Part shown: positions 19,885 through 62,185 of the stretch, in pieces
How positions within the stretch are numbered: the first letter of the stretch is position 1
Layout: every line of letters begins with the position of its first letter
Origin: Acidobacteriota bacterium
GTDB taxonomy: Bacteria; Acidobacteriota; UBA890; WLXD01
NCBI GenBank assembly: GCA_036012155.1
Contig: DASCOT010000236.1
Coordinates: forward strand, 40,655 to 104,654
Direction: 5' to 3'
Length of the DNA: 64,000 nucleotides
Program-made: the position numbers and the translations under genes
The notes under the pieces: model-generated
Told to the model about the DNA's origin: nothing
The model's database searches: none
Seen by the model: the letters and a program-made list of their open reading frames with translations, nothing else

Positions 19885-20553
19885 TTGGACCTGCAGGTCG
19901 CACACGTCGCAAAGGAGTTCGAGATCGCTGGCACGGCCGTGCCAGTGCTCGAAGACGTGTCGTTCGACGTCGCGGCCGGGAGCTCGATCGCGATCATGGG
20001 CCCGTCCGGCTCGGGCAAGAGCACGGTGCTGCACATCATCGGCACGCTCGAGCCACCGACTGACGGCGATGTGAGGATCGGCAGCCACGACCCGTTTGCG
20101 CTGAGCGAGCCGGCGATGGCGCGCTTCCGCAACGAATCAATCGGCTTCGTGTTTCAAGATCATCACCTGCTACCACAGTACAGCGTGCTCGAGAACACGC
20201 TGATCCCGACGCTGGCGTTCTCCGGCAAGCCCGCAGGCGAGGAGCGCGCTCGGCAACTGCTGGAGCGCGTCGGGCTGGCGCACCGGCTCGATCATCGACC
20301 GGCGCAGCTGTCGGGTGGGGAGCGTCAGCGGGTAGCGATTGCCCGAGCGCTGATCAACCGACCAGCGCTGCTGCTATGCGATGAGCCCACCGGAAATCTC
20401 GATCATCGAACCGCCGACGCGGCAGCGGAATTGTTGCTCGAACTGCACGAGCAGGAATCCAACGTTCTGGTAGTGGTCACCCATAGCGCGGAGCTGGCGC
20501 AACGCTTCGGACGCCGGCTGGAGTTGCGGGAAGGTCGATGCTACGAGGCCTGA
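19885..20553 (+). CDS. ABC transporter ATP-binding protein (LolD/MacB-type)
   Basis: Walker A GPSGSGKST, signature LSGGERQRVAIARAL, Walker B LLLCDEPTGNLD; probable TTG start at 19885. Confidence 0.85.
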   Translation: MDLQVAHVAKEFEIAGTAVPVLEDVSFDVAAGSSIAIMGPSGSGKSTVLHIIGTLEPPTDGDVRIGSHDPFALSEPAMARFRNESIGFVFQDHHLLPQYSVLENTLIPTLAFSGKPAGEERARQLLERVGLAHRLDHRPAQLSGGERQRVAIARALINRPALLLCDEPTGNLDHRTADAAAELLLELHEQESNVLVVVTHSAELAQRFGRRLELREGRCYEA

Positions 20554-24381: not shown

Positions 24382-25800
24382 CTACGGGCCCGAGCTGCCG
24401 GCCGCAGACAGCGCCGTGTCGAACGTACGAACCAAGGCATCGATGTCGTCGGGACCGGTGCGATAGTTGCAGACGCAAGCTCGAACAACCTCCGACCCCG
24501 AGGGTAGGCGAATCGTCGAGGCCCAGGCTTGTCCAGAAGCAATCACCCGCGCTACCAGCTCGGAAGCCGTGGCGCCGCCGGATTCGATCCGCGGATGGCT
24601 GAAGCAGACAAGCGGTAGTGGCGTGCGATTGCACAACAGCCACCCTGATTCCCGCAGTCGTTCTCGCAGGCGATCACCCATGGCAGCCTGATGCTCGACG
24701 CGCTCGGCGTAGCCTGGCAGCCCGACCTCGGCCAGAGCCATGAACACCTTGAGCCCGATGAACCGACGACTCCACTGCCACGACACCGTATACGGGTCGT
24801 CGGCTCCCGCAGGGCTGGGCGGCACATACGTCGCCTGAACGTCGAATGCGGCGCGCACCGCTTCGGGCCGGCGACTGAAGAACATACCCGCGGCCATCGG
24901 CACCGACAGCCATTTGTGGGCGTCCCAGGTCATCGAATCGGCCCGTTCGATGCCGACAAGCGCCGGGCGCAGGCGCTCCGACAACAGCGCGCCTCCTCCC
25001 CAGGCGGCGTCGGCGTGCATCCAAACATGCTGCTCACGCGCCACCTCGAGGATCGATTCCAGCGGATCGATGACCCCCGTCGAGGTGGTGCCGGCGGTCG
25101 CGACCACCAGAAACGGTTGCTCGCCCCGTGCTCGGTCGCGCCGCAGCTGGTCACGCAACGCCGCGACGTCCATCCGGAAATCATCGTCTACCGGTACCCG
25201 GCGCACCGCCCTCCGACCCAGCCCGGAGGCCACGGCGATCTTCACGAAGGTGTCGTGCGCCTGCCCGGAGAGATAGAGCGTGGGTTGCGCCGGCAGCGCT
25301 CGCAGCCCCGTCTCCGGAAGGTCCGGGAACGCCGCAACCAACGCCGCCAGCGTGGCGGTGCCGTTGGCCTCGGCGCCGCCGCTGGTGAAGTGGGCCATGC
25401 CGCCGTCCAGGTCCAGACCGACCAGGCCGCCCAGCGCGCCGAGCACCAGACGTTCCATCTCCTGCGCCGCCGGCGAGTGCTCCCAGGCAGCAAGCTGTGG
25501 ATTGAACATCGCCACCAACGCGTCGGCGACCACCGTGATCGGGGGCACGGCGGGATTGAACAGCCCGAAGTAGCGTGGGTGGGTTACCTGCACGGTGTCC
25601 GCGGCCAGCCGCTCGACGATCCGTTCGACGAGCTCGTCCGGCGAGCTCGGCCTCGAGAGGTCGAAGAGACCGCTGATCCGTGCGCGCACCTCGGCGACAG
25701 TTTGCGGCTCGGAAACCGGCCCGGCGGCAATCTGCTCGCCCATTGCCGATACCACCTGACGCAAGCGTAGGAGCGTCGCCAGCACCTCGCTGTCAGGCAT
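24382..25800 (-). CDS. PLP-dependent decarboxylase (fold-type I, group II amino-acid decarboxylase family)
   Basis: SMTWDAHKWLSVP lysine motif, HVWMHADAAWGGG, 472 aa. Confidence 0.85.
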   Translation of the reverse strand: MPDSEVLATLLRLRQVVSAMGEQIAAGPVSEPQTVAEVRARISGLFDLSRPSSPDELVERIVERLAADTVQVTHPRYFGLFNPAVPPITVVADALVAMFNPQLAAWEHSPAAQEMERLVLGALGGLVGLDLDGGMAHFTSGGAEANGTATLAALVAAFPDLPETGLRALPAQPTLYLSGQAHDTFVKIAVASGLGRRAVRRVPVDDDFRMDVAALRDQLRRDRARGEQPFLVVATAGTTSTGVIDPLESILEVAREQHVWMHADAAWGGGALLSERLRPALVGIERADSMTWDAHKWLSVPMAAGMFFSRRPEAVRAAFDVQATYVPPSPAGADDPYTVSWQWSRRFIGLKVFMALAEVGLPGYAERVEHQAAMGDRLRERLRESGWLLCNRTPLPLVCFSHPRIESGGATASELVARVIASGQAWASTIRLPSGSEVVRACVCNYRTGPDDIDALVRTFDTALSAAGSSGP

Positions 25801-26635
25801 GCACAGCAGCCCTCAGGTGCGCCGCCTCCCATGCGAGCATCGCGACCTTGCGCACCGGATCCCAGCGATAGTCACCAAAGTCACCACTGGCGCGCAGCAC
25901 ACGATGACAGGGAATCAGACGCGCAATTCGGTTGTTGCCGACAGCGCTGGCCACGGCGCGATGCGCACCGGGCCTACCGATCGCTGTTGCCACGTCGCCG
26001 TACGAAACGGCGGATCCTTGCGGTATCTCCAGCAGCGCCCGCCATACCTGAATCTGGAAATTGGTGCCGCGCAGCAGCAATCGAAGCGGCGCGTCGTGGC
26101 GATCGAAAGCAAACGCCAGGTGCGCCGCCATCGCCGTGCCGGCATCGTCTCGTAGCAACGCCGCCGCGTACCAGTCGGCGGCAAGATCGTCCACCGCCGC
26201 ATCGCTTCCCCGGTCGTCGATGAACGCCAGCGCCGCAATCCCACGATCGCTCGCGGCGATCAGGAACTCGCCGAAGGTGGAGTCGTGCAATCCATATCGC
26301 AGTTCCAAACCGGCACCGCCCGACTTGTACTCACCGGGAGTCACCGCCTCGGCACTAACGAACAGGTCGTGGAGTCTGGACGGCCCCGAAAGTCCGGTCT
26401 CGAACGATGCCTCGAGCACCGAGGCCGATTCACGCAACACCCTCTTGGCGTGCTGCACCGTGACGAACTGCAGAAACCGCTTCGGTGACACACCGGCCCA
26501 GCGCCGGAACAGGCGCTGAAAATGGAACTTGCTCAACCCGACGTGGCCTGCCACGTCGTCTAGCTGCGGCTGATCATAGGCATGAAACCGCAGGTATCGG
26601 ATGGCCTCCTGGATGCGACGATAGTCTGCGCTCAT
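25793..26635 (-). CDS. AraC-family HTH fused to methylated-DNA-protein-cysteine methyltransferase (Ada-like regulator)
   Basis: N-terminal AraC HTH (DVAGHVGLSKFHFQRLFRRWAGVSP), C-terminal MGMT domain with IPCHRVL active site; start at MSADYRRIQ. Confidence 0.8.
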   Translation of the reverse strand: MSADYRRIQEAIRYLRFHAYDQPQLDDVAGHVGLSKFHFQRLFRRWAGVSPKRFLQFVTVQHAKRVLRESASVLEASFETGLSGPSRLHDLFVSAEAVTPGEYKSGGAGLELRYGLHDSTFGEFLIAASDRGIAALAFIDDRGSDAAVDDLAADWYAAALLRDDAGTAMAAHLAFAFDRHDAPLRLLLRGTNFQIQVWRALLEIPQGSAVSYGDVATAIGRPGAHRAVASAVGNNRIARLIPCHRVLRASGDFGDYRWDPVRKVAMLAWEAAHLRAAVHA

Positions 26636-26848
26636 CGGGTTCCTCTCGGATCTTGTTGTCAGCGAGAAGCCTACGCTACGACCGACCTGAACAGGTCGCG
26701 ACCCGATAGTTGCGCTTGTCGAAAGTTCATCGAAACACGAAATGCTGAAACTTCTTGCGCCATTTTGGCGAATAAATAGGTGACGGGGGCAACCGAACCC
26801 GGTGGTCGCGCGTCTAACAAAGGGAAGAAGGCAAACGGCAACTACGAA

Positions 26849-26891
26849 GCCCGGGTCGTCGGGCCGGAGCACGGGGGGCTCGACGACCCGG
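26849..26891 (+). other. Perfect 12-bp stem / 19-nt loop hairpin (CCCGGGTCGTCG...CGACGACCCGGG) in leader before small ORF
   Basis: Exact inverted repeat read directly; lies 18 nt upstream of ATG 26910. Confidence 0.6.
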
Positions 26892-26909
26892 GAATTGAAA
26901 GGCAAGCAG

Positions 26910-27056
26910 ATGCTGAACCAAATCTTCCCGCTGTCGCTCGCCGCACTGGCGCTCTGGTCGGGCTGGACAGTCATCCGAACGGCGGTCGAGTTGCGTCGCG
27001 AGCTCGCTGTCGCGGTCGTTCGTCGCTCGCCCCGGGGCGCCAGCAGATCCCGCTAG
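26910..27056 (+). CDS. Small putative membrane protein (48 aa)
   Basis: GAAAGG RBS-like then ATG; hydrophobic segment IFPLSLAALALWSGWTVI; no homology recognised. Confidence 0.25.
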   Translation: MLNQIFPLSLAALALWSGWTVIRTAVELRRELAVAVVRRSPRGASRSR

Positions 27057-27164
27057 CATCGCCGCTCGTAACGCTGCCCGTCTGCAGCTCGTCGAGCCGA
27101 TCCACCAGCGTCGCCACCGCCACCTTGATGGCGTTGATGGGCTCGCCTGCTAAAGTCTCGCCCC

Positions 27165-27416
27165 ATGGCGCGCTACGAGGTTGAGCTCTGCGACGACACG
27201 GTCATCGAGGCGGACGACGCACGCTTTCTCTGCGACGGCAAGTTTGTGGAGCTCTTACCGCGCAAAGCCGCCTCGATCGACGGTGAGCCGGCCACGGTAG
27301 TGATCAACAGCTCACAGGTGCTCGCAATCGAACACAAGAAGATCGGCTTCAGCGGCGGCTATCGGTTTGGCGGCGACAAGGACTCCTCCTTCGCCAAGAC
27401 CGAAGGATCGATCTGA
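27165..27416 (+). CDS. Hypothetical small protein (83 aa)
   Basis: ORF only; no family recognised. Confidence 0.3.
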   Translation: MARYEVELCDDTVIEADDARFLCDGKFVELLPRKAASIDGEPATVVINSSQVLAIEHKKIGFSGGYRFGGDKDSSFAKTEGSI

Positions 27417-27468
27417 GCCGCGCGCCGCAGATAGTGCGCGACCCAGCCTGCCGGTCAATTGCCACAGA

Positions 27469-28422
27469 TCAGCGCTGGCTGACGAACCGCACCTCGAACA
27501 GTCGTGGCCAGAGCTTGCCGGTCACGAATGTGCGTCCGCTTGCCGCGTCGTAGGCAATACCGTTGAGCACCGCTTCGGGATCGCGAACCAGCGCATCATC
27601 GATAATGCCCGACATGTCGATCCTGCCCAGCACCTCACCCGTGCGCGGAGAGATCCGCAGGATATCGTCGCTATGCCAGACGTTGGCGTAGATTTCTCCG
27701 TCGATGTATTCGAGCTCGTTGATCTGGTCTATCGGGCGCCCTTGGTCACGCACCTCGATCTGGCGCACTGGGGCGACGGTCTCGGGATCGAGGAAATAGA
27801 TCTGCGCGCTCCCGTCGCTCAGGATGAGCTGTACACCGTCGTGGGTCAGGCCCCACCCCTGCGTGAACTGCCGGAACTGCCCCAACACGGTGAGGCTCTC
27901 GAGGTCGTATACGAAACCCGTGCCCGACTGCCATGTGAGCTGGTAGATGCGCTGCCCGAAGATGACGATCCCTTCCCCGAAGAACATCGGGGCCAGATCG
28001 ACCGACTCGACCACCCGGCCGCTCTCCAGCTCGACCTTACGCAGCGACGATTCACCACGCCGGCCGGTACCTTCGTAGAGATAACCGTTGTGAAACACTA
28101 GACCCTGAGTAAACGCTCCCGGATCGTGCGGGTAAGTCCTCACTACCTCATAGGTCTGTCGGCGCGTGCCGCCGGCCGCTTGGGCGCCCGAGGTGGTCTC
28201 TGCATCGACAGGGGCCGCCGGCCGCGCGCTTGCAGCGGGCGCCGACGCATCGACGCCTGCCAACATCGGCTCGTCACCGCTGCCCGCGGCGCTTGAACAG
28301 CCCGCGGCAGCGGCGCTGATCGCGAGGAGCAGGCCGCAGGCGCGCCAGGGGCGACCCTTCCCGAGTGGGCCTATCTCTCCGGTCGAAGATGCCCGGCTCA
28401 CGTCAGTGCGACACAGATTCAT
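27469..28422 (-). CDS. Glutaminyl-peptide cyclotransferase (plant/bacterial beta-propeller type), lipoprotein
   Basis: YEVVRTYPHDPGAFTQGL...YEGTG core of glutamine cyclotransferase; lipobox LLLAISAAAAGC; start likely MNLC. Confidence 0.8.
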   Translation of the reverse strand: MNLCRTDVSRASSTGEIGPLGKGRPWRACGLLLAISAAAAGCSSAAGSGDEPMLAGVDASAPAASARPAAPVDAETTSGAQAAGGTRRQTYEVVRTYPHDPGAFTQGLVFHNGYLYEGTGRRGESSLRKVELESGRVVESVDLAPMFFGEGIVIFGQRIYQLTWQSGTGFVYDLESLTVLGQFRQFTQGWGLTHDGVQLILSDGSAQIYFLDPETVAPVRQIEVRDQGRPIDQINELEYIDGEIYANVWHSDDILRISPRTGEVLGRIDMSGIIDDALVRDPEAVLNGIAYDAASGRTFVTGKLWPRLFEVRFVSQR

Positions 28423-28480
28423 GAAGCCCAGTATGCCGCCTCGATCAACGGCTTGCCTAACCATCCGAGCCGAGTCTCGG

Positions 28481-28846
28481 CTAGGCGACTCGCTCTAGAC
28501 GCGCCCAAAGATGCTCCCTGAGGCCAACGGCACGGGCGCCGAGGCGATCGGCAACCCGGCATAGAGCCCGCGGGGAACGCTCCGTGTACATGGCGCGGAA
28601 CATTCCCTGCGTCAGCAACAAGCACTCGCCAACAAACTGCTCGACGAATCGCTCCTCCCCATCCAGACGGGCGCCCGCGGCTTCGATTTCCACGCTCGCC
28701 TCGTCGAGGACTCTTGCCACGGCCACATAGCAACCGTCGACGTCGAGCTGCGCCGTTGCCGGAATAATCCCCGAGCTTGCATCGCGCTCCAGGCATATGC
28801 GGCACTGCGCGATGCGCCAATGGGCGCCTGAGAACAAGCTCGCCAT
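28481..28846 (-). CDS. Hypothetical protein
   Basis: 121-aa ORF in otherwise empty interval; no family recognised. Confidence 0.2.
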   Translation of the reverse strand: MASLFSGAHWRIAQCRICLERDASSGIIPATAQLDVDGCYVAVARVLDEASVEIEAAGARLDGEERFVEQFVGECLLLTQGMFRAMYTERSPRALCRVADRLGARAVGLREHLWARLERVA

Positions 28847-29011
28847 GGACCAAGTCCGTCACTCGGGCGGGCGGATCATGACCTGATCGCCCGTACGCAG
28901 CAGATGAGACGGGCCGCCCTGCTTGATTTCCGCTGGCGGCAGGCGAGAATTGCGTGAACGCGCATCCGCAGCGTAGGGTGCCTGGCGTCAGCCGACACTC
29001 GGAGGAAACTC

Positions 29012-30061
29012 ATGCCCAGTCAGCCGGCCGCAGCAATAAAGACCCCCATCGTCACGCGGCCCAACCAGATCGTCACGATCGAGCGACACATTCTCGATCA
29101 CCAGGCACAGCACCCCGACGCCAGCGGCGCCCTGTCGCGATTGCTCTATGACATTGCGCTCACCGGCAAGCTCATTGCCCGCGAGGTCAACAAAGCAGGG
29201 CTGGTCGACATCCTCGGCGAGACCGGCACGACCAACGTGCAGGGTGAACGGGTGCAGAAGCTCGACGAGTTCGCCAACGAGTGCTTTATCAAGAACTTCG
29301 ATCACGGTGGCATGCTGTGTCTCATGGGCTCGGAAGAAGTGGACGACCCCATTGCCATTCCTGACAAGTTCGCCACCGGTGAGTACGTGTTGTTGTTCGA
29401 TCCGTTGGACGGGTCTTCGAACATCGATGCCAATGTATCGATTGGCTCGATCTGGTCGATCTACCGCCGTACCACGGAGCCCGGACACGGCAGCTTGGTG
29501 GACCTGTTGCGCAAGGGATCCGAACAGGTAGCAGCCGGGTACATCCTCTATGGCTCGAGCACCATGCTGATCTACACCACGGGTGACGGAGTATACGGCT
29601 TCACGCTCGATCCGAGCATTGGCGAGTTCTTGCTCTCGCATCCGCGAATCCAGATTCCGAAAAAGGGCAAAACCTACAGCGTCAACGAGGGCTACCGGAA
29701 CGTCTTCTTCGAATCGACCCGGCGCTTCCTCGACTACCTGCAAGAGGAGGACGAGGCAACGGGGCGGCCCTATTCGGGTCGTTACATCGGCTCGATGGTG
29801 GCCGACGTGCATCGCACGCTTCTGTACGGCGGGCTGTTCATGTACCCGGCCACGCAAAAGGCACCGGGCGGCAAGCTGCGCCTGATGTACGAGGCCAACC
29901 CCATGGGGCTGGTCATCGAACGAGCCGGCGGCATGGCGTCGACCGGGACAGAGCGCATCCTGGACGTGCAATCCACCGAGTTGCATGAGCGCGTACCGCT
30001 CTACATGGGGTCGGAGGAGGACGTAAAGCTGGCGGTCGAGTTCGAGACCGGAGTTCGCTAG
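29012..30061 (+). CDS. fbp: Fructose-1,6-bisphosphatase class 1
   Basis: FBPase class I fold throughout ([13 protein letters not shown] metal-binding motif, [11 protein letters not shown]); GGAGGA RBS. Confidence 0.9.
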
Positions 30062-30245
30062 CCGGCCCGGCAAGAACTCGCATGGGGCTGGGCTCGGCGC
30101 GGGTCACCTATTGACAGCCAGGCGTAAAGGGTAGGACCCTCCACGCCATACCTAATATTTCCTGACCTCCTATTCATCCGCGCAATGCTCTCATCCCGCG
30201 CGGTAACCAACCGAGGGTGCGCGTACGCCCCGGTTACAGGCCGAC

Positions 30246-31289
30246 ATGAAGCCGGATCTGCCCATCGGCTACGTAGGCTTCGGTGCCTACGTGCCGCCGA
30301 CGGTCCTCACCAACAACGACCTCGAGCGGATCGTCGACACCAGCGACGAGTGGATCCAGCGGCGCACCGGTATCCGTGAGCGCCACATTCTGGCGCAGGA
30401 TGAGACCATCCTCGACATGGCGGTGGCTGCTGCGCGGCAGGCGCTCGACGACGCACAGATAGCGCCAGAGCAGATCGGCGACATCCGAGTCGGGGTAAAC
30501 ACCTGGGCACGCTTCCCCAGTCTTGCAACGCAGGTACAGGCCGCCATCGGCGCCTTCAACGCATCGGCCGCCGACGTCTCTGCTGGCTGCGCCGGCTTTA
30601 TCTACGCGGTCGAAGAAGCGTACAACAAGATCTGGGTCTCGAAGGTACGCGACGGGGAGGACCTGATCTCGCTGGTGATCGGCGTGGATGGCCTCTCGCA
30701 CATCACCAACTGGACAGACCGCGGCACGTGCGTGTTGCTCGGCGACGGTGCCGGCGCCGTGGTTCTCCGCCAAGTAGATCGCGGCGGGATCCTGGCGATT
30801 CACACCCACGCCGACGGACGCTACGGTGACTACCTCTATTCCGACTCGGTGCTCGAGACACAATGGGACCCGCGTGTCCCTGAGTCGTTCTCGAACAAAC
30901 AGAGCGGCGTTCGACCCTACCTGCACATGAGCGGCCGCAAGGTGTACGGCGTGGCGGTGCGCACGATGGTCAACGACATCCACACCGTGGTGGACAAGTA
31001 CAACCGCGACAACCCCGACCCGGTGAGCCTCGAGGACATCAACTTCGTCTACCCTCATCAGGCCAACCTGCGCATTATCGAGAGCGTGGCCAGCAAACTC
31101 GGGTTGCCGCTCGACCGCGTCTACACGAATGGCATCGTCCACTTCGGCAACACGTCGACAGCATCGATTCCGCTCGGATACCTCGATCCCGCCGCGCGAG
31201 CCAACGGCGCGCCGCAACACGGGATCGAGATCGACGTCGCCTTCGGCGCCGGGTTCGCCTCCGGAGCGATCCTCCGCGAGGTCGCCTAG
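30246..31289 (+). CDS. 3-oxoacyl-ACP synthase III (KAS III/FabH-like)
   Basis: Thiolase-fold KAS III: active-site Cys in GCAGFIYA, His/Asn region HQANLRII...NTSTASIP. Confidence 0.8.
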   Translation: MKPDLPIGYVGFGAYVPPTVLTNNDLERIVDTSDEWIQRRTGIRERHILAQDETILDMAVAAARQALDDAQIAPEQIGDIRVGVNTWARFPSLATQVQAAIGAFNASAADVSAGCAGFIYAVEEAYNKIWVSKVRDGEDLISLVIGVDGLSHITNWTDRGTCVLLGDGAGAVVLRQVDRGGILAIHTHADGRYGDYLYSDSVLETQWDPRVPESFSNKQSGVRPYLHMSGRKVYGVAVRTMVNDIHTVVDKYNRDNPDPVSLEDINFVYPHQANLRIIESVASKLGLPLDRVYTNGIVHFGNTSTASIPLGYLDPAARANGAPQHGIEIDVAFGAGFASGAILREVA

Positions 31290-31327
31290 GGCTCGTATCG
31301 ACAGGACCCTCCAACCGCGGGTGCCTC

Positions 31328-31371
31328 GGCTATATAGAATGCTAGATTGAAACCTAGGATCCTATATAGCC
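31328..31371. promoter_or_regulatory. Perfect 10-bp inverted repeat GGCTATATAG-N24-CTATATAGCC in AT-rich patch; candidate PadR operator/promoter
   Basis: Read directly; 31 nt upstream of padR start; contains TAGAAT/TATATA -10-like hexamers. Confidence 0.45.
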
Positions 31372-31401
31372 GTAGACAAGGTCATCGAGGAACACCGACC
31401 C

Positions 31402-31719
31402 ATGAAGATCATGTTCACCTATCCCACGGCGATGGCCCTTGCAGCCATCTCCCATGGCCATCGCTACGGCTTCGACATCATGGACGCCACCGGACTTCCG
31501 GACGGCACCGTGTACCCGATCCTGCGGCGCCTGGAGACACGAGGATTCCTTGTGGGGCTCTGGGAGGACGAGGAAGCAGCCTACGGCGACGGCAGGCCGC
31601 CACGACGCTACTACGAGCTCACCGCAGCGGGTCTGGAGGCACTGAGCGCGGCGCTGCAACGGTTCCCGCGCGTCGTCGAGCTATTCCCTGGCGCCGCCAA
31701 GCACCGCGCCACGATCTGA
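31402..31719 (+). CDS. PadR family transcriptional regulator
   Basis: 105 aa winged-helix PadR with the YPILRRLE recognition-helix motif. Confidence 0.85.
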
Positions 31720-31730
31720 GGAGATCGCCC

Positions 31731-34421
31731 GTGACTTCCCCACCCCATCGGTACCGCGCTGTCGAACTGCCGACCGTCTATCGGCACGTGCTGTGGTGGG
31801 CTGCTCGGTTGGTTCCACGCCTGCGGCGTCCCAGCTGGAGGCGCGAGTGGGAGGCCGAGATGACCTACGCCTACAGCCGCGCGGTGGCCGATGAGCGTGG
31901 CACGAAGCACCTGTTCGCCCGCGCCTTGTGGGCACACATCGACGCCCTCTGGGTATGGAAAGAGGAGTTCACCATGAGACGCGCGCTCGCCGATGTACGC
32001 CTTGCCCTGCGCAGCCTCCGTCACAGTCCGCTGTTCGCCGGCGCCGCAGTTCTCACACTGGCCCTCGGTATTGGCGCCAACACGGCGATCTTCTCAGTGG
32101 TCAACGCGGTCTTGCTGAAGCCGTTGCCGTTCCCGGAACCGGACAGGCTGGTGATGGTGCTGTACGAGGCGCCCGGCATCGGCTTCCCGAGGGTGCCGTT
32201 TTCGGAAGGTTCGTACGTTTTCGTGAATGACAACCAGCAGGCGTTCGAGTCACTCGGAATGCACACCGAGGAGCGCGTGAACATCGTTGGAGATGAGGAG
32301 CCGGAGCAGGTAGCAGGCGCGCGGATCACGCCTTCGGTGCTGCACGCGCTGCGGGTGTTGCCGTCGATCGGCCGCCCGTTTACCGACGCCGACGCCGCTC
32401 CTGGAGCAGAGCCTGTCGCCCTACTCGCGCGCCAGCTGTGGGAGCGCCGATACGGTGCGGACGAGTCGATCGTCGGCCAAACCGTGGAGCTCGACGGCAT
32501 CATGCGCCGCATCGTCGGCATCATGCCGGAAGGGTTCATGTATCCGTCCGAGGAGACCCGTGTGTGGCGACCGCTCGAGCTCGACCCCGCCAACCTCGAC
32601 GAGGGATCATTCAACGTACCCGGCATCGGCCGCCTGGCGCCCGGGGTGACCCTCGAGATGGCTTTCGAAGAATAGGCTGCCCTGGTAGCTCGGTTCAGCG
32701 AGGCGCTGCCCGACACCTTCTCGGAGGCGACACTCGAGCAGGCGCGCTTCGCGCCACTGCTCACGCCACTCAAGGAAATGGTCGTTGGTGATATCAGGCG
32801 GGCACTGTGGGTCGTTCTGGGCACCGTCGGCCTTGTCCTGTTGATCGCCTGCGCCAACGTTGCCAACCTCTTCCTGGTACGAGCTGAATCCAGACGGCGT
32901 GAGGTAACGCTGCGAGCCGCTCTGGGCGCCCGCCGAGTCGACTTGGCACGGTTCTTCCTGACCGAGAGCATGTTGCTGTCGTGCGGCGGCGGTATCGTCG
33001 GGCTTGGCGCGGCGCTGGCAGCGGTGCGCGGCTTCTCCAGCGCCACCCCGGTATCGATCCCGCGAGTCAACGCGATCACTGTCGATACCACGGTCTTGTT
33101 GTTCACTCTCAGCACGTCGTTGATTGCCGGCCTGCTATTTGGCTGCGTGCCCTTGCTTCGCAGCCGCAGCGGCGACATTGCCATGCGGCTTCGAGAGGGC
33201 AGCCGCGGTGCCACGACGGGAAGCCGAGCGCTTGGAATGCGCAATGTGCTGGTCGTGGCGCAAGTGGCACTCGCACTGGTGCTGTTGGTTGGATCAGGCC
33301 TCATGATCCGCAGCTTCCGCGCGTTGCGCAGCGTGGATCCTGGTTTCGAGTCCGCGGACGTGCTGACGGTGCGGCTCGCTCCGCCGGGCGCCGAATACCC
33401 GCACGCGGAGCAGCGGGCCGTTTTCTGGGAAGCGATCCTCGAGCGCGTCGCGACGATACCGCGCGTCGTATCCGTATCGGCAACGTCTCACTTGCCGCTC
33501 AGTGGCAGGATCTCGTCAGGCGACATCAGCATTGAAGATCATCCGAGACAAGACGATGCACTGCCGCCGCTCGCCGACCGCCGAGCCGTTCCCCCCGACT
33601 TCTTCGCCACCCTGGGTATCCCGGTGCTCGAGGGTCGCGAGTTCGTCGCCACGGACGCCGCCGACAACTACCGTGCCGCGGTTGTGAGCGAGTCACTGGC
33701 GCGCCACTGGTGGCCCAACGAGAGTGCCCTGGGCAAGCGCATTGGCGAGAGTGAAGAGGAGGAGTGGTATCAGATCGTCGGTGTGGTGGGGGACGTGCGA
33801 CACGAATCCCTCGAGAAGCCGACGGCAGAGACCGCGTACTTCCCTTTGCGGTCGGGGCCTATCGATGAGATCAGCGTCCCGGGCGGGATGGATCTGGTAG
33901 TGAGAGCCGTTGGCGATCCTGACGCGCTCGCGACGGCCGTCCGCAACGCGATATGGGAAATCGATCCACGGCTGCCGATCGCCAACATGCAACCATTGGA
34001 TCGAATCGTCAGCGATTCGCTGTCGCGTACCTCGTTCACCCTGCTGATGCTCGGCATCGCCGCCGGAGTGGCCCTGCTGCTCGGAGCCATAGGGATCTAC
34101 GGCGTGATCTCCTACATCGTCAGCCAGCGCACTCAGGAGATTGGCGTGCGCATCGCGCTGGGATCCTCGCGAGGCGGCGTTCAGGCGATGGTCGTTCGTC
34201 GGGGCCTCGTTCTGGCCGCCGTCGGGATTGTCATCGGCCTGGGGGCGGCAGTCGCGGTAAGTCGTGTGTTGACGTCGCTGCTGTACGAGGTCAATAGCAA
34301 CGACCCGACGACCTACGCCGGCGTCGCAGCGGTCCTCGGACTGGTGGCGCTGGTCGCCAGCTGGCTGCCGGCAATTCGTGCCTCGAGCGTCGACCCGGTC
34401 GTTGCATTGCGGGCCGATTGA
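31731..34421 (+). pseudogene. ADOP-family (duplicated FtsX/MacB-like) ABC permease with permease-prefix domain, interrupted by in-frame TAG at 32673-32675
   Basis: Two same-frame ORFs (31347..32675, 32778..34421) with continuous ADOP homology across the stop ([32 protein letters not shown]...; ...[31 protein letters not shown]...); AGGAGA-N6-GTG start at 31731. Confidence 0.65.
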
Positions 34422-34431
34422 GGGCAGCTCT

Positions 34432-35883
34432 TCAGCTCAGACCGAAGGCATACAGCGTGCCTCGAGTGCGTACGTAGATTCGACCGTCAGCTATCGCTGG
34501 AGTGGCGTAGCAAAGGTCGTCAAGATCCGACACGGTGATCGGATCGAGGCCGCCATCCGGCTCGAGCACCGAGAGCATCCCGAGCTCCGACAGCATAAAG
34601 ACCTTGCCGTCGGCGGCGATCGGCGACGCATAGTACTGGTCTACAGCACCCTTGAGGCGACCCTGCTTGATCACCTCGCCGGTCTGCGGATCGAACGACG
34701 TGACGATGCCGCCATCGTTCACCATGTACAGCACGTTGTTGTAGATGAGCGGCGAGGGTAGCTGCGGGACGGCGCGGTTGTACTCCCAGATCAGGTTCTC
34801 ATCGGTCATGTCACCGCGACCGCCCATGCGGATCGCCAACATGCCGTTGCGACTTTCCAGAGCGGCTCGCAGGTAGGCCCATTCCTCCGAATCGAGCGAG
34901 CCGTCGACGTCCAGGTCGGCCAGACCGAACCAATTCCGAGCGCGGTTCTGGGGCATTTCCTCGGGGTTGATCACGCCGTCGCCATCGACGTCACGTTCTG
35001 CGACAACCTCGCCGAATGGGCGCAGAAACACCTGATTGCCCGGCTGGTTGATCGGCGCCCCGTAGCCGTTGATGTATGCGATGTCATCGAGGATTACCGG
35101 CGTCGACTTCATCTCGAACGAGAGTCCGCGTACCCACCAGATCTTCTCGCCGGTGTCCGGATCATAGGAGTCGAGCAGGAAGGAGCCTGGCAAGATCAGC
35201 TGCGTTTCGCCCTCCGGCGACTCCCATAGCACTGGCGTGGAGTGGCCGCTCTTGGCCTCGGGCCGCTGAACTTCCCAGAGGACCTCGCCGGTGTCCTTAT
35301 GTACGGCGACCATGAACGACCCTACGTTCTGGTCGCATACGAGGATCACTTTGTCCCCAACGAGTACTGGTGAGGCGCCCATTCCGTAGATGTTGTTGAA
35401 CGGACCGAGCGGCACGTGCCAGCGCTCCTCGCCCTCGAACGTGTACGACATCAGGCCGAAGTCGGGAAAGAACACGTAGATCGAGCCATCACCAACGGCG
35501 GGGCTCGGCGCGGCGGCGTTGCTTCGGTAGTCGTAAAACTCGGTTCGAGGTCGCGGAGCCTGGCGTTGCCAGAGCACCTCACCGCTCTCGCGATCGAGCG
35601 CTATGGTCATCAGGTGGTCATTGTCGGTAGCCGTCAGGAAGATGCGCCGCTCCGAGAGGATCGGCGACGAGTGGCCCGGGGCCAGCTCGGTCTTCCAAAT
35701 AACGTTGGTGTCGGGCCCGAAGCTGGTGGGAAGCGCGCCGGTGTCGACAACGCCGGAGCCGTTCGGACCGCGGAACCGAGTCCAGGCCTCGGTCTCGTCC
35801 ATCTGCGCCGGACCGGCGCTGGTCTCGAATGGGAGGGTAGCCAACAGCAGCAGCGCTGCGAGAGTCGTGCGCATCGAGGTCAT
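34432..35883 (-). CDS. Secreted PQQ-repeat beta-propeller protein with EF-hand-like calcium-binding insertion
   Basis: Signal peptide MTSMRTTLAALLLLATLP; PQQ-like blades; DVDGDGVINPEE and DLDVDGSLDSEE EF-hand loops. Confidence 0.7.
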   Translation of the reverse strand: MTSMRTTLAALLLLATLPFETSAGPAQMDETEAWTRFRGPNGSGVVDTGALPTSFGPDTNVIWKTELAPGHSSPILSERRIFLTATDNDHLMTIALDRESGEVLWQRQAPRPRTEFYDYRSNAAAPSPAVGDGSIYVFFPDFGLMSYTFEGEERWHVPLGPFNNIYGMGASPVLVGDKVILVCDQNVGSFMVAVHKDTGEVLWEVQRPEAKSGHSTPVLWESPEGETQLILPGSFLLDSYDPDTGEKIWWVRGLSFEMKSTPVILDDIAYINGYGAPINQPGNQVFLRPFGEVVAERDVDGDGVINPEEMPQNRARNWFGLADLDVDGSLDSEEWAYLRAALESRNGMLAIRMGGRGDMTDENLIWEYNRAVPQLPSPLIYNNVLYMVNDGGIVTSFDPQTGEVIKQGRLKGAVDQYYASPIAADGKVFMLSELGMLSVLEPDGGLDPITVSDLDDLCYATPAIADGRIYVRTRGTLYAFGLS

Positions 35884-35966
35884 CCGTTGTTGCCAGAGAC
35901 GCCGGCAGCGGTGCGCGCCGAAGACACCAGCCGTTGCTGGGAGCAGGTTGACTGTATCATCGTGCA

Positions 35967-36245
35967 ATGGGTAGCCGCAGGATGCTGTTTGTGGCGGTCG
36001 GAGCGCTCGTCGCCGGCCTGTTGGCGCTGATCGTGTACTCGAGCCTGGGCCTCGCACGGGTCACGGGCGAGATCTGCTTTACCTTCAACGGACGCACCGA
36101 GTGCCGTGTGGCCTCGGGATCGACCCGCGAAGAGGCGATCCGCACAGCGGCCGAGATGGCCTGCTCGACGATGGCGGCGGGCATGACCGATCGCATCAAC
36201 TGCACGCAGTCGCGACCAACCCGCACCAGCTGGAACGTCGAGTAG
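35967..36245 (+). CDS. Small membrane-anchored Cys-containing hypothetical protein
   Basis: 92 aa, single TM, 4 Cys; no family recognised. Confidence 0.3.
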   Translation: MGSRRMLFVAVGALVAGLLALIVYSSLGLARVTGEICFTFNGRTECRVASGSTREEAIRTAAEMACSTMAAGMTDRINCTQSRPTRTSWNVE

Positions 36246-36282
36246 GCAACCAGCAGGCCGTGCAGTGACTGTGGCGGGGCTG

Positions 36283-37917
36283 CTACTGGCCCCCGCCGGT
36301 GCGCAGTAGCGCGCTGAGGTCGCGGCCGTCGAGGTCGGCGGGGGCATCGATTCCAAGCAAGCCGGCCAGGGTCGGGGCGATGTCAACGGTGGCGGCGCGC
36401 TCGTGGTGCTCGCCAGCCGCCACACCGGGCCCGGCGACGATCATCGGCACGTGGGAGTCGTAGTCGAACACCGTTCCGTGGGTCGTACCCATCGATTGAT
36501 CGTCCAAGAAGTAATCGTGGAACTGGACAACCAGGTCGGGACTCCGACCCGGAAAGTAGTTGTTCCGATATCGCTGCGTCTGCAGATCGGCGGACGGGGC
36601 CTCGTCCATCAGCTCGGCCGACGTCCAAACACGCTCGACCATCGGACAGGCGCTCAGAATCGCGGCCAACTCCGCCTCCACGTCCGCCTTGTCGAGCTCC
36701 TGCGCGGCGATCACCGCTTCGTCGAGGTAGTAGCTCGACTCGATCCACGCATGGTCGCCGAGCCGCTCGCGTAATCGCGCGCCCGCCTGCTGGACGCAGA
36801 GAAGGTCGGCACCGTCGAGTCGCTCCCCCTCCACCCCGCGGCGCGCAACGTATTCCGGCATCACCTGAACGCCATGATCAGCACTCAGCGCGAACAGCAC
36901 GTGGTCAAGACCGACGCGCTCGTCGATGAACTCCAGGAGCTCGGCGAGACGGCGATCGAGATTCACCAGGATGTCGAGGGTCTCCGGGGCGTTGGGCCCG
37001 TACGAATGTCCCACGTAGTCGAGCGAGGAGAACGACAGGCCAAGAAGATCGACACTGCCATCGGCCCCGAGATCCTCGTTGACGATCAAGGCTTGAGCCA
37101 GCTCGGCCAGATACCAGTCGCCCCACGGACTGTTCGGAATCCGCCCGTAGAAAGATGCGCCCGGTATCGGACTCGACCAACCGAGCACGTGCGGGAAAGC
37201 GCGTGCAAAGGCCCCGGTGTCGACATGCTCGACATCGACCTCGGGCCAGAGGCGCGCGTCGGTGAGTGGCTCCCAGGGGGTACCGTAGAAGCGGTTGAGC
37301 CGTTCCTCCCGGTTGAACTGGACCAGCCAATCAGGGAGCGAGGTCCCGTAGAAGCTGCTGCTCGTCCAGAAACCGTAGGTGCCGTCATACCAGAAGGCAC
37401 CGTCGGCGCCCTGCCCCCCCAGCATGATCGCCGAGCGATCCTTGATGCTGGCCGTGAGCACCTTCGAGCGTGGGTCCGCCGCCTTCATCCAGTCGCCAAT
37501 CGCCGTCCCCTCCAGCAACAGCGGCGAGCGCTGGCCCGCCGGCCCGCCAGAGTAAACTGAGACGTTCTGCAGCCGGTCGTACCAGTCGTTGCCGACGATA
37601 CCCGAGCGCGCCGGCTCGAGACCCGTCGAGATCGTCGCGTGCCCCGGAGCGGTCGCGGTCATCGAGTGGTTCTGATGCGCGTCGGTGAACACGGCGCCGG
37701 AATCGAGCAGGTGAGCTAGACCGCCGGTGAATAGCGATCGGAATCGCACCAGATAGTCGTACCGCGCCTGGTCGATGGAGATGATCACCACCAGCGAGGG
37801 ATCATCGCCGCGCGGCAGCGGCGCCAGTACAGGCGCCGCCGTCGACGCACAGTGCGCCACTGAGAGTGGCAGCACACAGGCGAGCAAGCAGCGCAGGGCT
37901 AGCGGTTTTCGACGCAA
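36283..37917 (-). CDS. Alkaline phosphatase superfamily protein (nucleotide pyrophosphatase/phosphodiesterase-like), secreted
   Basis: Signal peptide; VVIISIDQARYDY metal-binding N-terminal motif typical of type I phosphodiesterase/NPP family. Confidence 0.8.
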   Translation of the reverse strand: MRRKPLALRCLLACVLPLSVAHCASTAAPVLAPLPRGDDPSLVVIISIDQARYDYLVRFRSLFTGGLAHLLDSGAVFTDAHQNHSMTATAPGHATISTGLEPARSGIVGNDWYDRLQNVSVYSGGPAGQRSPLLLEGTAIGDWMKAADPRSKVLTASIKDRSAIMLGGQGADGAFWYDGTYGFWTSSSFYGTSLPDWLVQFNREERLNRFYGTPWEPLTDARLWPEVDVEHVDTGAFARAFPHVLGWSSPIPGASFYGRIPNSPWGDWYLAELAQALIVNEDLGADGSVDLLGLSFSSLDYVGHSYGPNAPETLDILVNLDRRLAELLEFIDERVGLDHVLFALSADHGVQVMPEYVARRGVEGERLDGADLLCVQQAGARLRERLGDHAWIESSYYLDEAVIAAQELDKADVEAELAAILSACPMVERVWTSAELMDEAPSADLQTQRYRNNYFPGRSPDLVVQFHDYFLDDQSMGTTHGTVFDYDSHVPMIVAGPGVAAGEHHERAATVDIAPTLAGLLGIDAPADLDGRDLSALLRTGGGQ

Positions 37918-37951
37918 GGAGACAGCTTCGCGAGTCTGGATCGGGATGCGG

Positions 37952-40276
37952 CTAGAAGTCGAACGACCGTGTCATCTTGGCGATCACGGCCTGGTCCAGT
38001 AGACCATAGAACTCCGGATCGTAGCGCACCGTCGACTTGTAGACCAGAAACAGATCGTCGCCAGTGCGGTGGATGAAGTTCAGCCGCGCGAAGATCGAGA
38101 GCCGCTCGGCAATGCTGTTGTATTGCACCAGGGCGCTCGTCAGCCAGCGCTCAGTGAAGTTATACGATGCCCCCATGCTGGCCACGTGGGTGTCAAAGGC
38201 GTCTGTGGGCAGCTCGATGCGGTTGAAGTCGTAGCGCGGCGACAGCGACAGCTTCTCGTTGAACCGCATGCTCATGCTACCGCCGTAGGAACTCCGCGTG
38301 CCGCCGAAGAAGCCGCCGCCGCTGGCGTTGACGCGACCGCTTAGCCGTCTCGCCCGGTACGACTCGAACGACACGCGCCACTCATTGCTGAGGTAGTCGC
38401 CGGCGCCGATCTCCGCCTGATCCGATACCTCGAACGGCTCTCGGATACGCTCGAAGGAGCGCTGTACCATGACGCTTGCCGAATCGCCCGACTCCAGTTG
38501 ATAGCGGGTCCAGAGAGTATGTTCCCGGGTCTCGGGGTTGCCGTTGATGTCGGTGACGTACTCGAGCACGGTGAAGAACATCATCTGCCGCATCCACGAC
38601 CAGCTTGGTCGAGGCTTCCAGCCAAGGCGATAGCTCTGCCGCACCATGTCGTGCCGCCGGACAAAGCCCATGTCGGTGGCGAAGTCGGGATCGACGTAAC
38701 TAACGCTCGCCTGGGCGCTCCACAGATCGCTGTCCCAACCCGCGTCAAGAGCGCCCACGTACTGCACTTTGTCGACTTCGGAATCGCGCGCCTGCGCAAC
38801 GTAACCACGCACGCTCATGTGGTCGAAGAACCGGAAGCTGGCGTCGATACCACCGACACGATTGTGCTCACCGCCACCCTGAACGTTGGTCAGGATCACG
38901 CCAACCGACGAGCGATCGAAGATGTCCTGCTTGAGCCGCAACGTGGTGTGGTTGTTTCCGGTGTAGCCGATCTCGCGGTTGTCGCCCGTCTGAGCGTTGA
39001 TGAAGCCGATGCTCGTGTTGCCGATCTTTCCGGTCAATTTCGCGCCGTACCGCATGGCGACCGGAGTTCCATCGAATAGCCCGATATTGCGCGAGTGATA
39101 GAGCAGCGCTCCGCTGTCCCCGCCCCCTCCTCGACCTCCGCTGCTGCCAAGAGCGAACTTGTCCGACCCCTCCAGAAAGAACTCCCGTCGCTCCGGGAAG
39201 AACAACGGGAAGCGGGTGAGATTGACGCGCTCCTCGTCGTCCTCGACCTGGGCGAAGTCGGTGTTGACCGTCAAGTCGGCGGTCAAGTTCGGGGACAGCT
39301 GGACCTTGAAATCCTCGATGCCGTAGTCGCCGGAGCGCTCGGTGAGCGGTAGGTCGGTGGCGTTGAGAGCTGAATAGCCGCCGGTCAGGTAGGGCTTCAC
39401 CCGATAGCGACCGGTGAGCCTGAGCCCCTTCAGACCGAGCAAATGGCCGCCCTGCGAAACATTGCGGAAGTTGAAGCCGCGGCGGTAGTTGCTCCAGTTG
39501 ACCTCCTCGTTCGTCCTCCGAATCTCACGGCTGAAATCGATGCCCCAGACATGCCCGCCGGCGGCAAACCGCATCGCCTTGAAGGGGATCTGCAACTCCG
39601 CTTCCCAGCCGTTCGGCGTGATCCTGGCTGCAGCCTCCCACCTCTCGTCCCACCGCGAATTGATGCTGCGCTCGCCCTGCAGCGTAGCGTCGTACTTGGT
39701 GCCGAGAGGGTTGACGCGAAACAGGAACCCATTGCGATGGTCGTGGAACGTGTCGATCAACACGGCGATGCTGTCGTCGGTTTCCAGGCGGCTATCACGG
39801 CGTAGGTCGGAGGCAACGACGCGATCTGGCTCGTCGTACATCACGAAGCCCAGATAGAGGTTGTCGTCGTCGAACAGAATGCGAACCTCGGTGCGCTGCG
39901 AGGGCACTCCACCCTCGACCGGCTCACGTTGTAGAAAGTCGGTCACCACCTCCGCCAGCGCCCACACGTCGTCATCGACCAGACCGTCGATAAGGGGGGC
40001 CACCGGCGCTTCCGTCGCCGCCATTCGTTTGCCGCCCGGGCCGATCTCCGCTTCCTCCTCGGGCGTCGGTGCACGCGCTGACTCGACCGCAGCCGGATCG
40101 GCGGCAGCTTCGAGGGCTTCGCGTAGCTCGCGCTTGGAGTCGTCACGCTGCTGCTTGCCTCGCTCCTGCGACTCAGCTAGAGCGCCAGCGGGCATTGCCA
40201 ATAGGATCACTGCTGCGCTCGCCAGCATGACCATCACCAGCCCGAGATCGCGGCGCAACCTATGCGTAATCGTCAA
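37952..40276 (-). CDS. DUF5916/carbohydrate-binding family 9-like domain outer-membrane-associated protein
   Basis: 774 aa; CBM9-like N-terminal region (PLIDG-LDD--W) followed by long beta-rich region characteristic of DUF5916. Confidence 0.7.
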   Translation of the reverse strand: MTITHRLRRDLGLVMVMLASAAVILLAMPAGALAESQERGKQQRDDSKRELREALEAAADPAAVESARAPTPEEEAEIGPGGKRMAATEAPVAPLIDGLVDDDVWALAEVVTDFLQREPVEGGVPSQRTEVRILFDDDNLYLGFVMYDEPDRVVASDLRRDSRLETDDSIAVLIDTFHDHRNGFLFRVNPLGTKYDATLQGERSINSRWDERWEAAARITPNGWEAELQIPFKAMRFAAGGHVWGIDFSREIRRTNEEVNWSNYRRGFNFRNVSQGGHLLGLKGLRLTGRYRVKPYLTGGYSALNATDLPLTERSGDYGIEDFKVQLSPNLTADLTVNTDFAQVEDDEERVNLTRFPLFFPERREFFLEGSDKFALGSSGGRGGGGDSGALLYHSRNIGLFDGTPVAMRYGAKLTGKIGNTSIGFINAQTGDNREIGYTGNNHTTLRLKQDIFDRSSVGVILTNVQGGGEHNRVGGIDASFRFFDHMSVRGYVAQARDSEVDKVQYVGALDAGWDSDLWSAQASVSYVDPDFATDMGFVRRHDMVRQSYRLGWKPRPSWSWMRQMMFFTVLEYVTDINGNPETREHTLWTRYQLESGDSASVMVQRSFERIREPFEVSDQAEIGAGDYLSNEWRVSFESYRARRLSGRVNASGGGFFGGTRSSYGGSMSMRFNEKLSLSPRYDFNRIELPTDAFDTHVASMGASYNFTERWLTSALVQYNSIAERLSIFARLNFIHRTGDDLFLVYKSTVRYDPEFYGLLDQAVIAKMTRSFDF

Positions 40277-40529
40277 GCGTCTTCACGGCCTCTGGCGGGG
40301 GCTGACGGCGACCTGGGAGCAGCGCCTGCGTCCAATCAACTCTAGCGATCTGCCAACGGGCGGACAATGCAAAAAGCGCCGACTGGCATGTTCTTTCCCT
40401 CGTCTTGACGCTTCTTTACATGACCACGACTCGGCACGCCTGCGAACGACTGCCGTTCCGCGACTTTGGGGCTCGGGCGTGGCAGAGTCTAGGCAGCAAC
40501 TATCCGTCTGTCACAAACCGGATCAAGCG

Positions 40530-42584
40530 ATGAACCGCACCCCACTAGCCACCCTTTCATTGGTCATTGCCCTGCTCTCGTTGACCGCGTCGATGCCGGC
40601 CAACGAGCAAACGGCGACGCCGCCACCGGCAAGCATCGAGCTCAACCCCGAGCACGTAACGATCGAAGTCGGGGGCGAAGCTCAGGTGACCGCGGTAGTG
40701 CGCGATAGCGACGGCAACGTGTTGGAAGACGTGCAGATCGTCTACCTGTCACGCGCGCGGCGCAGCGTCGGCGTCAACCCGGCCGGCAAGATCGAGGCCT
40801 ACAAGCCGGGCGATGCCGAGGTGGTAGCCATCGTTCCGAGCTCGCCGGATGCTGATCCGCGCGGCGACGACAATGCGCTGCGCGCTGTGGTCGCCGTCCA
40901 CGTACCGGTCCCACCGCTCGCGTCCATCGCCTTCGCCGATATGCCCGGGCGATATTACGCCGGGACGACCGTGCGTCCGGGGTTCGACGCGGTGGACGTT
41001 TCGGGTGCCAACCGCGCCGATGTCTCGCCGGCGCTAGACAGCAGCGACCCGTCGATCGTCGAGATCGATCACGTCGGATCGATGCGCCTCGTCGGTCATG
41101 GCACGGCCGTCATCACCGCCCGTGCCGAGGAGATTAGCGACCGTCTGGAAGTAACGGTCGCCGCGGACCCGACGGCATCGTTACGGCTGACGTCGAGCGC
41201 CAGCGAGGTTCGCACCGGCGAAGTCGTGCACCTCGAGGCCACGCCACTCGGCAGCGACGGCCAGCCCGTTCCGGAAATGCCAGTGATCTACGCGTTCCGA
41301 GCTCGTACGGATCAGCACGGCATCGGAGAGCCGTCCTCTGGGTTGGTCACCGCCGACGGGCGTTTCGTCGCCGACCTCCCAGGCGAGTACACGATCCTTG
41401 CGAGCGCAGGCCAACACTGGGCTTCGACAGCCGTGGTAGCAACGCCACGCAACGTCAAACGAGAGATCGAGCTAGTCGGCCACGGGCGCGTTGCAGACCG
41501 CAAGACCTCCGACCTGTGGGTCTGGGAGGCGCCGGACGGCGGTGACTACGCGCTCACCGGGACCTGGGGCGCGGCGGGGCACGCCTACGTTTGGGACGTC
41601 ACCGACCCAGGCAATATCCAGCTCATCGACATGGTCAAGGTCGACGCCCGCACCGTCAACGACGTCAAGGTCTCCGAGGATGGAAGGATCGCGGTGATCA
41701 GCCGGGAAGGCGCCTCGAACCGGCGCAACGGGTTGGTCATTCTCGACGTTTCGAGCCCGCGCGACGGGGTCAAGGTGCTGGCACGCTACGACGACCAGAT
41801 GACCGGCGGTGTACACAACGTCTACATCTACGACGATCACATCTACGCCCTTTCGAGTGGGCGTCGTTATGACGTTCTCAACATCGAAGATCCTCGCAAC
41901 CCGTATCGTGTCGGACGCTTCGAGCTCGACTCACCCGGCCGGTCAATTCATGACGTTTGGGTGATCGACGGAGTCGCGGTGTCGTCGAACTGGGACGACG
42001 GTGTGGTCCTCGTCGACGTCGGTGGCGGCGGCAAGGGAGGCTCTCCCACGAACCCGGTGGAAATGGCCCGGTACGCGTATCCGAGCGGCTGGAACCACGC
42101 CGCCTGGCCGTTCAAGAGCTCGAGCGGCAAGTTCTACGTCATTGCCGGCGACGAGGCCTTCCCGCGGGAGCTGAACCCGATGGGCCTGGATCGCTTCGAA
42201 GGGCCGCCGGTACAAGCTGCTGGATGGATCCACTTCATCGAGTTCGACGATCTCGAAAACCCGCGCGAGGTGGCCCGATACCAAGTACCGTTCGGCGGCA
42301 CCCACAATTTCTGGGTCGACGGCGACACTCTCTACGTCGCCTATTACAACGCCGGACTACGGGTCGTCGACATCTCCGGTGAGCTACTCGGCGACCTGTA
42401 CCGTCAGGGGCGCGAGATCGGTTACTTCCTGGCTGACGATCCCCAAGGCTTCAAGCCCAACGCGCGGCGTACCTGGGGCACGATGACCCACAAGGGGAAC
42501 ATCTTCTTCGCGGACAACAACTCCGGGCTGTGGGCGGTGCGGTTGAAGCCCGATGACGACGCAACCACAGCCGGGCCAGAGTGA
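40530..42584 (+). CDS. Secreted Big-2 Ig-like domains + LVIVD-repeat beta-propeller protein
   Basis: Signal peptide MNRTPLATLSLVIALLSLTA; Ig-like repeats; LVILDVSSP / LRVVDISG LVIVD-type repeats. Confidence 0.7.
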   Translation: MNRTPLATLSLVIALLSLTASMPANEQTATPPPASIELNPEHVTIEVGGEAQVTAVVRDSDGNVLEDVQIVYLSRARRSVGVNPAGKIEAYKPGDAEVVAIVPSSPDADPRGDDNALRAVVAVHVPVPPLASIAFADMPGRYYAGTTVRPGFDAVDVSGANRADVSPALDSSDPSIVEIDHVGSMRLVGHGTAVITARAEEISDRLEVTVAADPTASLRLTSSASEVRTGEVVHLEATPLGSDGQPVPEMPVIYAFRARTDQHGIGEPSSGLVTADGRFVADLPGEYTILASAGQHWASTAVVATPRNVKREIELVGHGRVADRKTSDLWVWEAPDGGDYALTGTWGAAGHAYVWDVTDPGNIQLIDMVKVDARTVNDVKVSEDGRIAVISREGASNRRNGLVILDVSSPRDGVKVLARYDDQMTGGVHNVYIYDDHIYALSSGRRYDVLNIEDPRNPYRVGRFELDSPGRSIHDVWVIDGVAVSSNWDDGVVLVDVGGGGKGGSPTNPVEMARYAYPSGWNHAAWPFKSSSGKFYVIAGDEAFPRELNPMGLDRFEGPPVQAAGWIHFIEFDDLENPREVARYQVPFGGTHNFWVDGDTLYVAYYNAGLRVVDISGELLGDLYRQGREIGYFLADDPQGFKPNARRTWGTMTHKGNIFFADNNSGLWAVRLKPDDDATTAGPE

Positions 42585-58379: not shown

Positions 58380-58414
58380 GTCTCGGTCTTGTCCCGCGGG
58401 TTCCAGCGCTAGCG

Positions 58415-62175: not shown

Positions 62176-62185
62176 CCGGTGGCGG

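Follow-up and report, generated by a model that had tools for sequence, protein, structure and literature searches.

The duplicated FtsX-type permease gene at positions 31731-34421 of the DNA analysed here, a 64-kb stretch of an Acidobacteriota contig called the window in what follows, is interrupted by an in-frame amber codon. The question raised by this locus is whether the TAG is an error of the assembly, a codon that the organism reads as an amino acid or at least in part reads through, the seam between two working polypeptides, or the mark of a gene that was recently lost. The parts of the locus are as follows.

31402 to 31719, plus strand: PadR-family transcriptional regulator, 105 aa, intact (Pfam PF03551, E 8e-12)
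31731 to 34421, plus strand: ADOP permease frame, 896 codons plus TGA, with start GTG 31731, closing TGA 34419-34421 and one interruption
31731 to 32672, plus strand: N-terminal fragment, 314 aa, with the N-extension, TM1 and nearly all of periplasmic domain 1 (MacB_PCD)
32673 to 32675, plus strand: in-frame amber TAG, codon 315; the orthologous codon of the sister lineage is CAG (Gln)
32676 to 34421, plus strand: C-terminal remainder, 581 codons, with TM2-TM4, TM5, periplasmic domain 2 and TM6-TM8
32778 to 32780, plus strand: first ATG 3' of the stop, taken by Prodigal-type callers as the start of a 547-aa product (P0002)

Among the 897 codons of the permease frame there is a single internal stop, TAG 32673-32675 at codon 315, and the peptides on either side of it are those quoted in the first-pass annotation, which had described the permease as split by just one in-frame amber. 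The GTG start is preceded at a distance of 7 nt by the motif GAGGAG (31718-31723), and the N-terminal extension of 81 residues is kept in the 896-aa orthologue (P0001) as well as in many homologues of 870-900 aa. Between 32676 and 34421 there is no further stop or frameshift, and the permease frame as a whole holds no second stop and no indel. The TGA of the PadR gene lies only 11 nt 5' of the permease start, so that co-transcription of the two genes is probable; the same PadR-permease pairing, with the regulator 5' of the permease, is found in the sister lineage (locus L007). On its 3' side the permease is followed by a convergent PQQ-repeat gene.

The assignment of the gene to the ADOP family proved correct. 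With the stop written as X, the NCBIfam profile TIGR03434 (ADOP) is matched in one stretch over positions 2-803 of 803 with 921 bits (curated cutoff, 622.3 bits), and the homology is indeed continuous over the stop, as had been claimed; taken alone, the N-terminal fragment covers profile positions 2-230 (238 bits) and the C-terminal fragment positions 247-803 (662 bits). Pfam places a MacB_PCD domain (residues 106-309) 5' of the stop and FtsX, MacB_PCD and FtsX domains, in this order, 3' of it. Hydropathy analysis gives eight hydrophobic segments in a 1+3 and 1+3 arrangement, of which TM1 lies at approximately 32034-32114 and the other seven 3' of the stop. Both hallmarks of the ADOP family are present, namely the internal duplication, with two MacB_PCD domains, two FtsX modules and eight TM helices, and the 'orphan' character, with no fused or adjoining ABC ATPase gene; the closest ABC_tran gene (19885-20553) lies at a distance of 11 kb and has an FtsX partner of its own, a protein of 1147 aa. 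What is missing is the intact single ORF, TAG 32673-32675 being present in all population loci read. Judged by its sequence, the gene is a member of the ADOP family in every respect other than this intact frame.

The TM2-TM4 segment aligns to the FtsX domain of the solved MacB-type structures 5xu1, 5lil and 5nik, with E values of 1.7e-10 to 4e-5. The order of TM1, periplasmic domain and TM2-4 is shared with the MacB-type (type VII) permease domains (MacB, PDB 5lil and 5nik; Spr0694-0695, PDB 5xu1), but the window permease, unlike these, carries the module twice in one chain and has no ATPase fused to it or encoded next to it. In terms of the MacB-type module, the stop falls between the first module's periplasmic domain and TM2, that is, inside the first four-helix FtsX module, with TM1 and periplasmic domain 1 on one side and TM2 on the other.

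The best intact homologue (P0001; 896 aa, 81% identity) aligns without gaps over the whole frame, all 896 codons of it, which bears out the earlier reading of a single-codon nonsense substitution rather than a frameshift. It is encoded at a syntenic sister locus, L007, with the gene order FBPase-FabH-PadR-ADOP-PQQ, and the L007 codon opposite TAG 32673-32675 is CAG (Gln). Since the sister lineage has CAG at codon 315, one C>T transition, CAG to TAG, accounts for the stop and is taken here to be its origin. The comparison with orthologues that had been proposed as a check on the stop accordingly names CAG (Gln) as the ancestral codon, and the gene has what defines a nonsense pseudogene, a premature stop relative to an intact orthologue at one base change from CAG. 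In most of 119 homologues the column of codon 315 holds L or M, and Q is confined to the nearest orthologue; the second sister protein (P0124) also has Q there. Given the predominance of Leu and Met, this is a tolerant, moderately hydrophobic position. The window frame is broken at codon 315, in contrast to the close ADOP homologues retrieved, which are uninterrupted: none of the best 120 is naturally split, and all are of 810-912 aa except the window's own fragment. An intact allele of more than 81% identity was not found among 5.8 billion protein clusters, and a search of genome contigs with the C-terminal fragment returned relatives of at most 51% identity among the matches listed (Longimicrobiales, Gemmatimonadota, Acidobacteriota).

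Some further differences between L007 and the window were seen when L007 was compared with positions 24778-42555. Its FBPase and FabH genes are separated by an IS element (HTH_Tnp_1 and rve), and directly 3' of ADOP it has a gene for a carbonic anhydrase; a Lactamase_B-rhodanese gene of L007 is missing from the window at about 27004-27145.

Whether the stop exists at all in the organism can be judged from independent assemblies. Nine population loci that span it were read from ENA, Logan and NCBI assemblies (ERZ9811087, ERZ23491262, ERZ23491264, SRR4465032, SRR13782125, SRR13782123 and GCA_024711865.1). Six of these, L001-L006, were compared base by base, and all have TAG in an identical context; the other three, L008-L010, are 100% identical to the window where they span the stop. 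The 547-aa downstream ORF is found in identical form on 21 contigs altogether, which stem from several samples and assemblers, and the assembly ERZ23491134 has the same gene calls of 271 and 547 aa. The population contigs (L001-L013 and L096) match the window at 99.9-100% identity over lengths of 3-23 kb, and the few SNPs that separate them from it are mostly G>A or C>T; among the loci fetched for the comparison around the stop, where identity to the window is 99.96-100%, they include 33533 T>C, which is synonymous and lies within the permease gene, as well as 26823 and 29590. This pattern indicates a near-clonal population that was sampled repeatedly, and the handful of SNPs by which the loci differ identifies them as several haplotypes and data sets rather than one. 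An assembly or consensus error at 32673-32675, which a sense codon at this position would have betrayed, can be given virtually no weight against an identical TAG from different assemblers and runs, SNP-distinguishable haplotypes included. The stop is real, with TAG in 9 of 9 loci as read from assembled contigs, and the mutation is fixed in a natural population that is nearly clonal. JGI metagenomes were also scanned for the two alleles, with NNN at codon 315, and gave no match. In the ERZ23491262 scaffold, what looks like a deletion of 130 bp in the N-extension is a scaffolding gap filled with N.

The permease is not the only interrupted gene of the window. The first-pass annotation had counted three such events, and in substance this count is borne out, with two ambers and one ochre; the other two are found in a pair of genes near the right end.

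60629 to 59328, minus strand: MscS channel gene with a C-terminal FHA domain (MscS-FHA), in-frame TAG 59475-59477
59332 to 58415, minus strand: Ser/Thr protein-kinase ORF, in-frame TAA 59210-59212 at codon 41

A GC3-based scan for in-frame stops at 240 nt flagged the ADOP site only; it missed the FHA event, whose downstream piece is short, and the TAA of the kinase was lost among antisense noise. The two additional stops surfaced through a Pfam FHA domain that is cut at profile position 25 of 67 and then goes on in the same frame for another 49 codons. With the stops bridged, the FHA match runs over positions 2-67 of 67, and the Pkinase match of Pfam likewise runs across the TAA. In the closer relative L094 both genes are intact (MscS-FHA, 430 aa; kinase, 305 aa), with TGG (Trp) at the amber of MscS-FHA and TAT (Tyr) at the ochre of the kinase, for which L094 is the nearest orthologue; among 115 homologues, 103 have Trp in this column of the FHA domain. 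Both stops recur in L096 (SRR28208100), an independent contig from this population with 3 mismatches in 2978 bp. The truncation of MscS-FHA spares the channel part (384 aa) and removes only the phospho-threonine-binding module. As the kinase ORF overlaps the end of the MscS-FHA gene, the two probably form one operon, and loss of the kinase and loss of the FHA domain may be linked. The usual VAIK lysine seems to be missing in the window kinase and in its orthologue (AVAILL, VVAVTL), so that the protein may be a pseudokinase irrespective of the stop. The orthologous residues at the three stops (Gln, Trp and Tyr) differ, and so do the base changes, which argues for independent nonsense mutations and not for a decoding rule.

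Three further places in the window can be mentioned alongside these genes. The 1147-aa FtsX-type permease at 20538-23981 (plus strand) is recorded as 428 aa in scaffold_38 of ERZ23491216 (L013); its codon 429 in the window is TAT (21822-21824), one step from TAA or TAG, and it may be a fourth, polymorphic or segregating nonsense case. A stretch of 46 codons on the minus strand (1841-1978; GC3 0.87), which is bounded in one frame by the TGA of a 271-aa gene and the TAG just before a DUF697 gene, was considered as a further event, gave no match in Pfam and was set aside; its sequence, ...ELPENFPRTHLGKIDRGELILRG, is reminiscent of the C-terminal end of adenylate-forming enzymes, and it may be a gene relic. 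The 348-aa ORF at 58376-59422 (plus strand), with a sub-threshold match to DUF6420, probably arises as a shadow of the kinase gene on the opposite strand.

Two in-frame TAGs inside conserved domains within 64 kb would at first sight suit an organism in which TAG is recoded, as an amino acid in general or as pyrrolysine. A reassigned TAG is expected to be rare as a terminator and to stand for one consistent residue. In the window gene set, which comprises the gene calls of the public record and ORFs for the remainder, the terminators of the 52 other genes are TGA in 32 cases, TAG in 18 and TAA in 2, and the TAG-ended genes with an L007 orthologue (FBPase, FabH, a phosphodiesterase-family protein, DUF5916 and a 121-aa protein) stop at the orthologue's residue. 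With 18 of 52 genes ending in TAG, and at orthologous ends, TAG is a normal and frequent terminator in this genome. Within the interrupted genes it does not stand for one residue either; it replaces Gln in ADOP (where the family at large has Leu or Met) but Trp in FHA, and the third event is a TAA. To our knowledge, neither of the TAG-interrupted families (ADOP and FHA) is among the known pyrrolysine-containing proteins. Recoding of TAG in this organism is therefore an explanation with next to no likelihood.

Partial readthrough is a related proposal, in which a natural suppressor tRNA for amber or ochre codons, or else leaky termination, would yield some full-length protein and at the same time rescue the other two genes. 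It could draw on the fact that all three in-frame stops of the window are UAG or UAA, with no UGA, so that one ochre suppressor could read them, and on interrupted frames that are otherwise intact. On the other hand, TAG ends 35% of the genes at orthologous positions, and efficient suppression would extend many proteins as a consequence. Moreover, the codon usage of the window predicts a TAG:TAA:TGA ratio of approximately 0.6 : 0.16 : 0.24 for random single-base nonsense mutation, and the observed 2 TAG : 1 TAA : 0 TGA is the spectrum predicted from mutation alone. The 64-kb window contains no tRNA gene, and around TAG 32673 there is no notable RNA structure (z -0.39), of the readthrough type or otherwise. 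We consider readthrough to be quite unlikely.

In our judgement the interruption probably represents a recent loss-of-function mutation, that is, a young pseudogene fixed in a near-clonal population. The sequence of events can be rationalized as follows. A C>T change at the Gln315 codon (CAG) of the PadR-linked ADOP permease created the amber TAG, and ribosomes that start at GTG 31731 would terminate after residue 314. The released fragment would comprise the N-extension, TM1 and periplasmic domain 1, and the other seven TM helices together with periplasmic domain 2 would depend on re-initiation about 100 nt further 3', at a place without a good ribosome-binding site. A four-helix module of the MacB/FtsX type cannot be built with TM1 as its only helix, and the transporter is therefore most probably inactivated. 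Loss of function is what we infer here, and the same applies to the population-genetic cause considered further below.

The remaining option is a functional split, in which the 314-aa fragment and a C-terminal fragment, the latter made by re-initiation at ATG 32778 or CTG 32706, would assemble non-covalently. Both pieces are undamaged and conserved, and gene callers as well as PGAP annotate two CDS, the latter with CTG 32706 as the start of a C-terminal product of 571 aa. The ATG at 32778 lies 34 codons past the stop and just 5' of TM2, so that a fragment with seven TM helices and a short N-terminal stretch in the periplasm is conceivable. However, the only Shine-Dalgarno-like motif near this ATG is AGGA (32773-32776), which ends 1 nt before it, and with such a spacing independent initiation is doubtful; neither a promoter-like nor a terminator-like site was seen in 31200-34700. 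The Met of the restart column is also present in P0003 and P0124 and hence not specific to this lineage, a natural split is found in 0 of the 120 best homologues, and the break lies within the first four-helix FtsX module. A functional split is on balance improbable. A broader proposal, that the ADOP permease, MscS-FHA and the Ser/Thr kinase are all still expressed, through natural suppression or functional splitting, with the stops as tolerated or regulatory attenuators in a free-living Acidobacteriota/Gemmatimonadota-like lineage, has in our estimate only a slim chance of being right.

How long ago the permease gene was interrupted can be approached through the rates at which its two parts have changed. 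Between the window and L007, dN/dS is 0.12 for both permease fragments, with dS of about 1; the flanking FabH, FBPase and PadR genes have values of 0.07-0.09, somewhat below those of the fragments. A relative-rate test with P0003 as outgroup gave 46 vs 46 lineage-specific changes and hence no acceleration, and at the 164 columns that are conserved in at least 90% of the homologues the window deviates at 3, intact homologues at 2-6. A mild excess of window-specific changes in the N-terminal fragment was inconsistent between outgroups (p 0.02-0.6, uncorrected) and was discarded. By these data, the mutation is young compared with the divergence from the sister lineage; alternatively, the gene is still under selection. 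The undamaged remainder of the permease frame points to a recent mutation; an undamaged frame and a low dN/dS would, however, fit a gene that still works, by readthrough or as two polypeptides, equally well. As the carriers are almost identical, they do not record the evolution of the gene after the mutation, and the rates fit a young mutation and a gene still under selection alike.

As a case, the locus is an ordinary nonsense pseudogene, a known phenomenon, and like others of this kind it combines one transition to a premature stop with an intact orthologue in the sister lineage. It differs from them in that the permease has so far undergone no secondary decay and that the allele is fixed in all sampled assemblies. 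Three nonsense-interrupted genes among about 52, with no frameshifts seen, is somewhat high for a free-living bacterium and counts against the pseudogene explanation. At the same time, three fixed nonsense mutations within 64 kb (~52 genes) hint at drift, relaxed selection or a recent bottleneck, and mildly deleterious or neutral gene losses could have been fixed by drift or hitch-hiking in this lineage. ADOP-family genes are present in multiple copies in their host genomes.

The main value of the result concerns the quality of annotation. In the GenBank TPA metagenome-assembled genome (MAG) of this 'Acidobacteriota bacterium', the two halves are listed as two CDS, HJO05633.1 (314 aa) and HJO05634.1 (571 aa), with no pseudogene label. 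These entries, as well as the Prodigal calls of 271 and 547 aa, each correspond to one half of a single broken ADOP gene and would be better annotated as a pseudogene or disrupted gene. Along these lines, in-frame ambers in a MAG of high GC content need not mean recoding or error, TAG making up approximately 60% of the nonsense mutations expected here.

A last observation concerns the right end of the window. The minus-strand gene at 62186-62797 encodes a gluconate 2-dehydrogenase subunit 3 with a Tat signal (Pfam E 2e-34), and the 274-aa ORF on the opposite strand that overlaps it (61895-62719, plus strand; weak match to RovC) is probably not a gene. The start of the dehydrogenase subunit overlaps the stop of an upstream GMC oxidoreductase gene, which extends past the right end of the window.
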